The position numbers were made by a program, and so were the translations under genes. The notes beneath the pieces were generated by a model, which was given only the letters and a program-made list of their open reading frames with translations, had not been told where the DNA came from and ran no database searches. From NCBI GenBank assembly GCA_951406725.2, contig OX597822.1:34782001-34846000 (forward strand): a stretch of 64,000 nucleotides of DNA. The letters are read 5' to 3'. This document shows, one piece after another, positions 684 through 55,727 of the stretch; position 1 is the stretch's first letter; each line of letters starts with the position of its first letter. This DNA is from Octopus vulgaris (Eukaryota).

Positions 684-1058
684 TATTTGTTTCAACCATC
701 AGATCGCTTCAGAACCGCCTTGGAAGTTTTTGTTCAAATAAATCGACCTCAATACTCTATTTTTGCCTCGTACTTATTCTATCCGTTCTTTTGCCGAACC
801 TCTAAGTTACGGGAAGGTAAACACATTAACACCGGTTGTTAAGTAGTGGAGGTGGTGGTGGTGATGGTGGATAAACACAGAGAAAATGATACACACATAT
901 ACATGCACATACACAAACAGACATATATGCAATCCCCTCACAACGACTTGGGCCACCCGAGGAAATTTGAGAAAACACTTGCCGAAGATGCCACGAAGTG
1001 GGATTGAACTCAGAACCATGTAGTTGGAGACAAATTTCTTACCACACACCTCATGTGT
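684..1058 (-). mobile_element. SINE family A, degenerate copy (tRNA-derived, CORE-like)
   Basis: Matches the family A copies elsewhere in the window (gccgaacctctaagttacggg; cacttgccgaagatgccacg; gggattgaactcagaaccatg). Confidence 0.75.
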
Positions 1059-1584
1059 ATATGCGTCTTTTCATGCAATACAGAAAAGACAGTTGAAACA
1101 TTACTCAATAATGAAAGTGATCGCATTTCATTTAATGCTTCGAAATCTCGCGTCATCCCGTGTAAACTACATGAATACTAATACGCACAATTTATCATTC
1201 AACTCGCGAAATTCTTGGCTTAAGATACATATATATTGCAGCACCACGTTAATAATATAAATCCCAAAGCGGGAAAAAATGGGAAAAGAGGAATAAGGAA
1301 ACAAAAAAGGCAAAAACACCAAGTGCCTCAGTTAGTCGCACAGCACAAGGGTCGACGGAATCTACTGAAGCAAACCAAGAAGCTCGCAGCATTGGCTCTG
1401 ACGATAGCGAGGCTAAGGCGTTGAAAGGGCCAAGTACCCTCGTGGGTATCACCTGACACCTCGGTGAAGCAAGCGGCTAACAATAACAATAACTTGGCCC
1501 TTGGCGACCCATAACCTCCAAACGTTTATATACTTCCATATATATGTGTATGTGCATGTGTATGTATGTGTGTGTACATATATT

Positions 1585-1618
<34 letters not shown>

Positions 1619-1685
1619 CATGTATGTATATATGTATGCATGATGAATGTATATATACATGTGTGTGTATGTGTGTATGTATGAT

Positions 1686-1751
<66 letters not shown>

Positions 1752-1887
1752 CGGAGATGTACTCGCATAGCAAGTAATTTGATCTGAGATCGTGTGCTGA
1801 AACGAAAACAATTGCAGCGTGGGAGGTGTTTATAAGCCATTTAAGAAACACACAAAAGCCGTTCGATTCTCCAACATTTAAGTTTAA

Positions 1888-1937
1888 TTTGTCAAAATAT
1901 TTTCGTCGCTAAACTCCGCGACCTGTTCACTGACAAA
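1888..1937 (-). ncRNA. Minimal type I hammerhead ribozyme, G3:C8 core variant (mirror copy)
   Basis: Reverse-complement arm of the same palindrome; identical except the stem II loop (ggagttta). Confidence 0.8.
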
Positions 1938-1954
1938 GTCCGTGCTGCACGGAC

Positions 1955-2004
1955 TTTGTCAGTGAACAGGTCGCGGATTTTAGCGACGAAAATATTTTGA
2001 CAAA
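1955..2004 (+). ncRNA. Minimal type I hammerhead ribozyme, G3:C8 core variant
   Basis: tttgtca-GTGAACA-g-gtcgc(ggatttta)gcgac-GAA-aatatt-t-tgacaaa: 7-bp stem I, 5-bp stem II, palindromic AAUAUU in place of stem III, NUH triplet UUU. Confidence 0.8.
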
Positions 2005-2084
2005 TTAAACTTAAATGTTGGAGTGAATCGAACGGCTTTTGTGTGTTTCTTAAATGGCTTATAAACACCTCCCACGCTGCAATT

Positions 2085-2130
<46 letters not shown>

Positions 2131-2484
2131 GAAAGGCAGATAAACAGTAGCAGGCATGAAAAATGCATTCCAATTGAAAGTTCTGTATATATTGAAATGA
2201 TTAATCAAGATTTGTTTACATCATTTAATTTTGTAGGCAACTTTCCATGGGAGAAAATTACTTACACCTACGTTTAATTATCTGTCTTTTCTACTTCTAA
2301 ACGCTCGAAAACGATGTTCGTTCGCATAGTACACTTACTACCAGTACTCTACCTACTCGTGATGAGGGAGTTGATGTTTGGGAACACTACCGGCTGAGTA
2401 TCATTACACATTTTAGTGTAGCGTTGTGTAACACGTTCTTTTCTTACATACATACATAAGATATACGTATGTACATATATACAT

Positions 2485-3030
2485 TGTTTGTTTGTTCCTT
2501 CTCGAGCCACGCCTGGCTCATAATGGCCCGTTTCCCGGTTTCCTTGGCGTATAGGTTCCCCACCTGGATGGGACGCCGGTCCGTCACAGGTGAGCTGCTA
2601 GATGCAAGAGGAAAGTGTGATAGGTAGGAGAGTCCAGTTTGCTGGACATTGTTGTAGAGCTGAAAAAGAAGTAATTTCTACTCTTCTCCTCTGGAAGCCA
2701 TCTACTCGCAGTACCAGAGGGCGCACACTCTCCTACCCTGATGTAATCTCCAGGGATACAGACATCCAGCAACAGGACCTCCGCAATGCCATGATGGACC
2801 GTGAAGTCTGGCGTAGCATGGTAAATTCCATTGTCTCGACCACGGTCGAACAATGATGATGATGATGATGTGATAGAAAGTCGTGGCGAAAGAGTCAGCT
2901 GGAGTTCGTCATTAGGCGTGGAGCTTAGGTGATTCGCTCATAAATACACACATCGACCGGTCTGAGATTCGAACCCACGATCCCTCGACCGCGAGTACGC
3001 TGCTCTAACCACTAGCCCATGTGCCTCCAA
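2485..3030 (-). mobile_element. SINE family C (tRNA-derived), interrupted by an RTE fragment
   Basis: Reverse complement of head ggaggcacatgggctagtggttagagcagcg...gggttcgaatctc; matches the copy at 20267-20566. Confidence 0.85.
2624..2868 (+). mobile_element. 5'-truncated RTE-clade LINE 3' end with (TGA)n tail
   Basis: Peptide RRVQFAGHCCRAEKEVISTLLLWKP...AMMDREVWRSMV resembles RTE ORF C-termini; tandem-repeat tail; TSD tgtgatag at 2616-2623 and 2869-2876. Confidence 0.85.
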
Positions 3031-3294: not shown

Positions 3295-3715
3295 TAAGGC
3301 CGTGAGCTGGGTAAAATGCTTAGCGACATTTCGTCTGTCCGCATGTTCTGATTCCAAATTCAGCCGAGGTTGACTTTGCCATTCATCCTCTATGGGGTTG
3401 ATAAATTAAGGACCAGTTGCGTACTGGAGGTCGATCTAATCGACTGAACCCCCACCCCCACCCCCAAATTTCAGGCCATGTGCCAATAGTAGAAAGGATT
3501 TTTAAGGCGGGGACCTGACAGAATCGTTAGCACGCCGGGCAAAATACTGTGCAACATTTCGTTCGTCTTTATGTTCTGAGTTCAAATTCCACCGCAACCA
3601 CTTTCATTCTTACAGGGTCGATGAAAAATATGTACTAGGTGGACACTGGAGTCGATGTAATCGACGTAGATCCTCCCCAGAAAATGGTGGCTGCATACGA
3701 ACATTTAAAATCCAA
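3295..3715 (+). mobile_element. Two tandem degenerate SINE family B copies
   Basis: taaggc...gagctgg head and gactttgccattcatcct...gataaattaag motif, repeated from ~3503. Confidence 0.75.
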
Positions 3716-4138: not shown

Positions 4139-4298
4139 GGCGTGGCTGTGAGGTGAAAAGCTTGCTTCCCAACAACATGGTTTTGGGTTCAGTCCCACTA
4201 CGTTGCACCTGAGGCAAGTGTCTTGTACTACAGACTCGGGCCCACCAAAGCCTTGTGAGTGGATTAGGTAGACAGAAACTGAAAAACAACCCGTTGTA

Positions 4299-8935: not shown

Positions 8936-9179
8936 GATATATTTCATTGGATTTTTTGCACTAATTTTGAAACAGTCCGTGTTTTACCATGGCAAGAATA
9001 TTTTTTAAGATATGACTATCTGTATATTTTTGTTCCTGTCGGTCTTATGCTCTGAGATACACACTGAACTACTTTATAGAATCATATTTGAATGTAGAAA
9101 TAAAGGTATAAGTTCATATTTATGCGCTAACTTTTTAACAGATTTGTTTTCATTTTTTGTAGGATTATAACCTATCTAA

Positions 9180-10580
9180 ATTAAGCCTGAAGCATGTTTT
9201 CCAGTTTGTGGTAGGGTCACCGCTTTATCACAACGACAGCTTATGAAAACTGATCTTATAAAGATACACAAATAATATTTTGATTGACAACCTACGCTCA
9301 CAAGAGTCGACACGGGGACCTCATTAAATTTGTATAGCGTATTGAAATGATTTGCGCGTTTCCTTGAAGAAAAAATAACCACCAGCTGGTTGTGCAATAA
9401 CAATAGTTTGGGGTGAGGAGAAATATGTTTCTTAAAAAATGATTGTACAAAATCATTAGCGCCAACCTGGGTTCGCAAGTAGAGTTCTATCCTATATTGA
9501 AACACTGCGTATTGCTATTTTCCTGCAAGATAGTCTCTGCTTTATTGAAGGCGAAGGAATAGATATTGGGGAAGCTTCAATTGCTGGTGGTTCTTGTAAA
9601 CTTTCGCCAAGTTCCTGGGAATACAAGCCAGTAGAAGAATAATAAATTCAACTTGTTTTACACAAGCCATTTTGAACAACGTTAGGAGGGATTTAGGTCT
9701 GTCAATCAATAATTCAGACCTCCTCTCATTTGAAAAGGATGTCGTAGTGACTGTAAGTTACTACAGAAATCAAATTTTGGATTAGCACTTTACTTCAAAG
9801 TGGACGTTCCTTTCTATTATTGTCATGGCATTAATAGACTGGACATCTTGTAAGTGGATGGTGACTTTCTGTAGTTTGATCACTACAAAGCTTTAATGCT
9901 GTTTTATTGCATTTAAAAGGATCTTATGTTAACATGGAGATCCTTTTTAACGTAATTCAATGCAATAGCGACTATGGGTTTTTTGTAGCGATCTTAAAAT
10001 AGCTACCATATGAATGTCTCTATGCTTGTAGGACAGTTGAGATTTTACAGAGCACCATCATAATAGAATTTACTAATCAAGTATTCATATATTCGCGGAA
10101 GAAATAATATTCAATCACACCTTTGAATTGATCAGAAGAAAACGTTTCGTCTGATTAAACCAATTTTTTGAAGATATTCATTAAGGAATATCTTCATTAA
10201 GTTGAGGGAAAAAATCAAAGAAATATTGATATCTCAGAAATATTTTTAAAATTAAGTGCTGCAAAATTTAGAACCGAAAATCTTCTAGTGTATTAAAATC
10301 AAACAGCTTATGATGAAAAACTGAGCATCTCAGATAAAAACATATTTTGTGCTAACTTAAGAAATTACAAACTTTCTTTTCAAACTGGTGACGAGAAACT
10401 GATCACTTTAAAAGATAGGAATTGCTGCATGAATCCGAAATTCCATTTATTGTATTTGCTTCCTGAAAATCTTGACGCAGTTATTGCTGAACATGGAAAC
10501 AGATTTCAATTACGAGATTAAATTTATGGAAGCTAGCTGTTAAGTATTCTGCAATGCAAACATGATGGCATACAACTACA
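9180..10580 (+). pseudogene. Chapaev3-like transposase relic (many stops and frameshifts)
   Basis: Collinear motifs: FPVCGR..YF; QESTRGPH*IC; GW*LSVV*SLQSFNAVLLH at ~9859 (cf. WRLFIDSSKxSLKAVLLH); WVFCSDLKI (cf. WxICGDLK); CMNPKFHLL..PENLDAVIAEHGNRF at ~10430-10505 (cf. MSLKxHFL..PENLGAVSDEHGERF); NMMA. Confidence 0.8.
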
Positions 10581-55357: not shown

Positions 55358-55656
55358 TTCTTGTATTTAGAAATGGCCATTTTGCTAGTTTAGCCAATAA
55401 AAACACACGCACTATATATTTGGTGTTACTTTGCTTCAGCGTTATTTGTTTTTTACAATAATTTTAATCTTATTTCGGCAATAGTTCTTTCGTCACACTC
55501 CTGCGACCTCATCAGTGGTCCTTTGCTTTCTTCTTTCTTATATGTGTGTCTCTCCTTTATTGGCTAAACTGGCAAAATGACCATTCCAAAATACAGCAAT
55601 ATCCGTTTCAACACACGATTTCACGTCAAGAATCTTGCAAAACAAATATATAAACG

Positions 55657-55727
<71 letters not shown>

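Follow-up and report, generated by a model that had tools for sequence, protein, structure and literature searches.

We consider it probable that the palindrome near the beginning of the window, as we call the whole 64,000-nucleotide stretch of Octopus vulgaris DNA analysed here, is composed of two head-to-head 5′ fragments of a Penelope-like element (PLE) encoding a reverse transcriptase (RT) and a GIY-YIG endonuclease, inserted into a (TA)n microsatellite, each carrying a natural hammerhead motif with a G3:C8 pair, and that it likely derives from one capped RNA on which synthesis began at two internal sites, nicks in the two target strands serving as primers. The window copy lacks the first bases of the transcript and is an ordinary dead insertion of a known element type. 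Its features are collected in Table 1.

Table 1. Features of the palindromic insertion and its flanks, in window positions.
Feature	Position	Strand	Basis
(TA)n target microsatellite, left flank	1689..1749	.	sequence
Long arm: PLE 5′ leader, hammerhead and codons 1-30, up to the downstream (tail) priming site	1750..1946	-	copy alignment, L172 comparison
One-sided "tail" of ~56 nt, between two inferred reverse-transcription starts	1750..1805	-	copies; analogy to PAc as described in the available text of PMC11167929
Codons 1-30 of the PLE ORF (~1,050 aa), reading on into the ORF of L172	1751..1840	-	
Minimal type I hammerhead motif with core pair G3 (1930):C8 (1925); cut expected between 1895 and 1894	1888..1937	-	
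Head-to-head arm junction, 3-nt microhomology 1947-1949, differing among copies	1938..1954	.	
Short arm: leader, hammerhead and first 11 codons (ATG 2054), ending at the upstream priming site	1947..2088	+	
Minimal type I hammerhead motif, predicted cut after 1997	1955..2004	+	motif search, folding, aligned relatives
(TA)n target microsatellite, right flank	2089..2127	.	sequence

The near-perfect 283-bp inverted repeat that the original prediction described was recovered, as 1806-2088, aligned to its own reverse complement, shows 97.5% identity in 285 columns. The arms differ by a mismatch in loop II, a gap of 2 nt and the base at the centre, 1946. Those bounds hold for the inverted repeat but not for the whole unit, which spans 1750-2088, abuts a (TA)n run at both ends and is asymmetric, its left arm carrying 56 extra nucleotides with no counterpart on the right. 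The loop-II mismatch and the gap were probably acquired after insertion, since the other copies listed in the family alignment lack them. TA-rich flanks are present at nearly all of 30 aligned copies. Around the insertion, short interspersed repeats of apparently SINE-like character lie at 931-1027, 4169-4265, 2962-3020 and 3306-3594, and the window holds no ORF of 200 aa or more, except two of uninformative look.

Regarding the parent element, longer copies do adjoin RT/GIY-YIG ORFs, a point that had been marked for checking. The PLE ORF, with YVDD and GIY-YIG motifs, lies upstream on the same strand and ends ~1.1 kb before the hammerhead motif, while in L172 the tail itself runs in frame into the PLE ORF, so that window positions 1840-1751 (minus) correspond to the first 30 codons. 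The Pfam GIY-YIG model matches the parent ORF (E 9e-5), the Pfam RT model gave no match to it, and 1,000 codons including YVDD are open in L171. A pLTR or partial tandem including the ORF start is seen in L172 and L175, and an inverted 5′-truncated copy with the tail at one end only in 33/33 short and 12/12 long pairs. In the protein P0004, inspected by eye, CxxxCxxC precedes the GIY-YIG motif, with two Cys inside and a His downstream. Judged by these sequence features, the window family is a canonical EN+ Penelope-like element and its parent shows Neptune/Nematis-type characters, a placement made by features, the RT tree holding unnamed homologues only. The closest protein found, P0005, is labelled Octopus vulgaris and has 60% identity across residues 350-850; part of its sequence matches 150 scored places in the source genome at 97-100%. 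More distant PLE-like ORFs with minimal hammerheads (C3:G8 and U3:A8) occur in the same genome (L136 1926-4365, L106, L137 and L147), and the window family inserts next to elements of this set.

The window contains just two occurrences of the core motif, 1962-1975 (+) and 1930-1917 (-), a number reached in 0/100 shuffles. Each arm folds with a stem I of 7 bp and a stem II of 5 bp (z -3.4 and -2.6), and both stems keep a pair probability of at least 0.93 when the whole arm is folded; motif search and folding thus agree with the two divergent hammerheads predicted, one on each strand. In the plus arm, stem I pairs 1955-1961 with 1998-2004 and stem II pairs 1970-1974 with 1983-1987, with G3 at 1962, C8 at 1967, an extra G between A9 and G10.1, G12 at 1988 and the palindrome at 1991-1996; U17 falls at 1997, consistent with the cut predicted after that base. 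The motif possesses the further elements of a minimal type I hammerhead, namely U4, G5, A6, A9, G12, A13, A14, A15.1:U16.1, H17, an extra base before G10.1:C11.1 and a palindromic helix III, and its assignment to PLEs was correct, the arms being a PLE leader plus the start of the ORF. The consensus identities C3 and G8 are absent, with G3 in 250/255 arms and C8 in 246/255, which makes it a variant. Set against the flanks, the comparison put forward in the original prediction, this conservation within the family is about the same, as expected for young copies decaying neutrally, and does not discriminate. Lineage-level differences within the family fall in loop II, the leader, distal stem I, the UTR and the ORF, and CpG decay affects stem II. 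The view that CUGANGA descriptors would miss the motif is supported. An Rfam search of 1000-3000 returned no hammerhead match up to E 10, only hairpin-driven miRNA-like matches below gathering, and the C3:G8 relatives L305, L315 and L320 likewise score below gathering. A duplex of the 6-bp palindrome amounts to only -0.2 kcal/mol, and no hammerhead dimer formed in unconstrained co-folding of two monomers, a procedure unable to score one. In one copy, L392 (G000:C2:15126209), the ribozyme has been lost neatly and entirely from between the two stem I strands, as though the RT had skipped over the folded structure.

The family is abundant. In a DNA search of the source genome (2.8 Gb), 40 of 1,588 candidates were scored, and those that match at full length are 96-100% identical. 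Genome-wide, the G3/C8 core pattern has 11,781 matches, against 253 with the reversed control, and 83 of the first 100 listed belong to the window family. For sequence lying downstream of the ribozyme, a pair of overlapping pattern searches counted 7,936 and 1,154 matches. The window family therefore comprises roughly 9,000-10,000 motif-bearing arms, in several subfamilies differing mainly in loop II. A search with the canonical core (326 matches, control 118) revealed no C3:G8 subfamily of this family in the first 100 listed, which were scattered single mutants, chance matches and one U3:A8 sister family. Four truncated ORF fragments of the family at G000:C23:13059080-13104404, spaced ~12.5 kb and 20 kb, are probably a segmental tandem duplication. 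The O. vulgaris repeat annotation lists Penelope families, and its main text never mentions hammerheads or ribozymes (PMC13282606).

The exchange at positions 3 and 8 had been read as covariation and not decay, which was borne out by related families with C3:G8 or U3:A8 and by compensatory changes in stem II. The P0005 sister family resembles the window family in its N-terminus, which is homologous, and in both end points, and carries C3:G8 at the corresponding place, with the hammerhead-ORF-hammerhead arrangement intact in 8/8 loci fetched. This very young sister family (L305-L312, e.g., L305 1134-5722) has many open frames of ~1,310 codons, and its hammerhead bears C at core position 9 and a non-palindromic helix III. 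A third family of the source genome, tied to its ORF at L235, has U3:A8. Among metagenome relatives, a hammerhead follows the ORF in 3/9 loci, with C3:G8 in L315 and L320 and U3:A8 in L317, which also has C9; in 6/9 none occurs within the contig. Thus, six ORF-anchored families, found without requiring a 3:8 pair, all pair there, as G:C in the window family, C:G in L305, L315 and L320 and U:A in L235 and L317. The window also holds a second (TA)n-flanked inverted unit (55360-55660), from the sister PLE family, where a canonical C3:G8/A9 minimal hammerhead at 55515 (minus) offers a natural control.

When 11 motifs were aligned, three of the rows picked by a pair-requiring scan and the L320 row gapped in four stem-II cells, 62/62 cells pair, the 3:8 pair being C:G in six, U:A in three and G:C in two. 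Five of the six pairs change on both sides, including four of the five stem-II pairs; 0/500 shuffles reach the observed value and slid controls are 17-67% paired. Besides the constant pairing at 3:8, U4, G5, A6, G10.1:C11.1 and GAAA are invariant in 11/11. From these alignments, a Watson-Crick pair at 3:8 is kept by covariation among the related families. In the RT tree, the window family is sister (100/98) to a clade of L305 and L235, and because C:G and U:A lie outside it, G3:C8 is derived on the window-family branch; it was seen in only one family lineage. As the youngest intact sister family and L317 both carry C9, the core may be relaxed in this clade of elements. C9 in these relatives, and the conservation of G3 and C8 within the window family at no more than the level of the flanks, speak against strict catalysis.

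The G3:C8 hammerhead is a putative ribozyme, and in the inserted copies ~99% of arms span the predicted cut intact. Among 99 arms, taken from the first 100 of 1,154 listed matches, 68 retain the ribozyme upstream and 27 have a genuine start among the 12 positions tested, the remaining four being an internal deletion, a complex copy and two arms starting further upstream. Of these 27 starts, 8 lie at the predicted cut or one base after it (P=0.07 for the 12-nt window), and a peak of the same height is seen 9 nt upstream. A pile-up of 5′ ends at the cut, suggested by 17 hand-picked loci, was dropped because this larger sample is not significant. The start pattern is compatible with cleavage as well as with its absence and fits PAc, the Poseidon element of Anolis, where the text available of Frangieh et al. 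2024 gives unprocessed RNA as the main substrate (PMC11167929). Public sequencing runs yielded no usable evidence of expression, the four examined consisting of contigs that reveal neither strand, ends nor cleavage. A structure conserved without cleavage, as a protein-binding or translational element in which only the fold matters and G3:C8 is tolerated, seems doubtful to us while keeping an appreciable share of the probability. It would agree with the arms that span the cut, with C9 in sister families, with PAc insertion in vitro, which hammerhead mutants did not affect according to the same text, and with the poor in vitro cleavage of minimal PLE hammerheads (PMC4209133, as far as its text was available). 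Against it, the invariant core and the always-paired 3:8 (11/11) form the pattern that catalysis requires.

The inverted pairs were studied in 65 of 191 matches, with the 5′ start motif as the sole criterion of choice; these are the first 66 in the list after removal of one duplicate. Short inverted pairs make up 33 of these loci, and all 33 join one long arm (codon 30) to one short arm (near codon 11), the short arm ending at the usual site in 32 and being slightly shorter, at 138, in one. The unpaired arms are 27 long, 6 short and 2 other, so that long-plus-long pairs would be expected often under independent choice. All 12 kilobase-scale pairs are also long plus short, and in four of them the two arms terminate in the ORF at points no more than 10 nt apart. 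A common three-site haplotype is found in both arms of 28 of 29 scorable pairs, four of the 33 having been dropped for gaps, compared with a mean of 10 and a maximum of 20 in 20,000 shuffles; rare variants are shared by both arms in four pairs, vs. 136 one-arm differences. This concordance of haplotypes could also arise if a single master is active at any one time, and conversion between arms could account for the shared rare variants. Hybrid pairs with discordant arms number at least 5 of 64 (L007, L026, L040, L179 and L183), L026 being the only long-plus-long pair, which suggests that two RNAs are sometimes used or that exchange occurred later. The junction varies among copies, and the common type recurs on all three haplotypes.

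At the other end of the arms, a hand count of the first 100 of 491 listed starts gave 55 that continue in the template and 45 that leave it at one site, 29 of these having G where the template has T or C (P 3e-8 against 25%). A 5′ cap can be reverse-transcribed as an extra G. In L135 (7140-7165), the inferred transcription start is immediately preceded by branch-point-like and polypyrimidine/YAG bases; since these upstream bases resemble a 3′ splice site, the extra G could instead derive from a spliced exon. No matching splice donor was found in L135, L171 or L172. The intron of D. virilis Penelope ends at its hammerhead, according to the text available of PMC4209133.

In the mechanism that we propose, transcription would start ~23 nt upstream of G3, with the cap copied as an extra G. 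A dimeric RT-endonuclease would begin the two cDNAs at different points, near codon 11 and at codon 30, both running to the RNA 5′ end or stopping early and then being joined by microhomology (3 nt here), so that the outcome would be a dead-end palindrome with a one-sided tail. The hammerhead would be a slow ribozyme needing a dimer or the element's protein, and rarely cleaved in the RNAs that get inserted.

This twin priming on one capped RNA is favoured over the published self-priming model because of the long/short rule, the arm concordance, the cap-like G and two long pairs that are not fold-backs. In the model of Arkhipova et al. 2013, the inverted arm would come from self-priming or fold-back of the first cDNA, or from antisense RNA, and self-priming on an antisense template is what the portions available of PMC3846280 propose for PLEs. 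Such an origin would explain why haplotypes and rare variants are common to both arms and why 4/12 long pairs end at nearly the same point; we hold it to be unlikely, however, as the short arms of L130 and L171 extend 1.8-2.4 kb beyond the long arms in the 5′ direction, each arm holding sequence that the other lacks, so that neither was copied from the other. The capped-start arm is the short one in at least 17 counted cases and the long one in 15, single short arms exist, the extra G marks the sense-strand 5′ end, and in some pairs, such as L047, both arms reach the extra G with one base between them. It is also improbable that the arms come from two separate RNAs held together, possibly via the palindromic helix III, and concordant through the same active locus. 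The hybrid pairs (at least five), among them L026, point that way, and the text available of PMC4209133 treats minimal hammerheads as thought to dimerise; but long plus long occurs in 0/33 sampled pairs although unpaired arms are mostly long, the internal end points shared in four long pairs are hard to obtain from two molecules, and the palindrome duplex is very weak.

The palindrome had also been given a role as a regulatory switch. Read-through RNA would indeed form a very stable duplex (-241 kcal/mol), as predicted, but its use in masking the ribozyme is not supported, the junction being remade at each insertion, many arms being single and the window copy having lost the first bases of the transcript. 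The palindrome is an insertion by-product, and nothing suggests selection on it. We give very little credence to such a switch or to a self-propagating non-autonomous unit (MITE, retrozyme or SINE), to which the high copy number and the prevalence of one junction type would lend themselves. The ends are asymmetric and inside the ORF, the junctions vary, with the common one on all three haplotypes, 32/65 sampled loci have no short inverted pair, and there is no tandem direct array. A MITE or foldback DNA transposon was rejected because the ends of the unit are asymmetric, its centre varies and its partner is an RT instead of a transposase. A Pol III SINE was rejected as well, as the B-box-like word at 1861-1869 lies on the antisense strand and differs in older subfamilies. 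Non-LTR retrozymes are defined by tandem direct repeats, each with a type I hammerhead, in the text available of 10.64898/2026.07.22.740005; copies here are single or head-to-head, without tandem direct repeats, and this class was likewise set aside.

On the most far-reaching reading, the hammerhead would be the first natural G3:C8 example, fixed as wild type in a recently active retrotransposon, and the thousands of palindromes would record a general Penelope mechanism, in which an RT-endonuclease dimer carries out twin priming on a single capped and uncleaved RNA, at two fixed sites in the ORF start, explaining inverted pLTRs, the one-sided tail and solo pLTRs and replacing antisense self-priming. 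This joint reading is put forward tentatively, as a possibility about which we are somewhat more doubtful than assured. The long/short rule, the arm concordance and the cap-like G make one-sided-tail inverted repeats testable in the existing in vitro system. G3:C8 completes the natural series C:G, U:A and G:C at the hammerhead general-acid base pair within one clade of elements, and the family is a natural test case for whether PLE hammerheads are kept for catalysis. Searches for ribozymes that rely on CUGANGA hence return counts that are too low, in this genome by ~10,000 motifs.

Compared with the PLE hammerheads of Cervera and de la Peña 2014, the present ones share the type I fold without a real helix III, the palindromic 15.2-16.2, the extra base between 9 and 10.1, G10.1:C11.1 and opposite-strand pairs, 100-700 bp apart (PMC4209133, available text). 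That text describes low in vitro activity and a U3-A8 variant, G3:C8 being unmentioned in it and in the supplementary files searched. Natural covariation at 3:8 is also found in Perreault et al. 2011, where the portions available report only U3-A8 (PMC3088659). Engineered C3G/G8C gives partial rescue (PMC8495972, in the text available), and in PAc the same double mutant partly restores cleavage of a hammerhead that needs its protein (PMC11167929, from the text available). No natural G3:C8 hammerhead was found in the literature searched, where figure-only supplements lie outside a text search and a prior report is possible; G3:C8 is thus probably an unreported natural variant, with its novelty provisional.

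Regarding EN+ PLEs, as described in the available parts of PMC3846280 and PMC8557442, the window family resembles them in its single ORF with RT and C-terminal GIY-YIG, partial tandems, inverted 5′-truncated copy, pLTR with the first codons, tail on one arm only and (TA)n targets. The tail of ~56 nt differs from the 30-40 reported there, and a large share of the copies here are tiny capped-start fragments. With Neptune/Nematis (PMC8557442, same limits) it shares the CX2-5CxxC linker before the endonuclease, the CCHH motif and (TA)n targeting.

No twin-priming model for PLEs was found in the literature searched. In LINE-1 twin priming, two primers from opposite target strands act on one RNA and a microhomology join follows, giving an inversion without duplication at variable sites. 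The two opposite-strand primers on one RNA and the microhomology join are common to both systems, whereas here the priming sites are fixed and the 5′ part is copied twice. The closest parallel in the published text available is PAc (PMC11167929), where two internal RT start sites bound the tail, both strands are nicked and extended, targets are AT-rich, the hammerhead lies next to the ORF start and unprocessed RNA is inserted; the text examined draws no link from the two start sites to inverted pairs. Unlike the present family, in which the ORF starts 57 nt after the cut, that of PAc starts inside the ribozyme, and the G3:C8 pair that was engineered there is wild type here.
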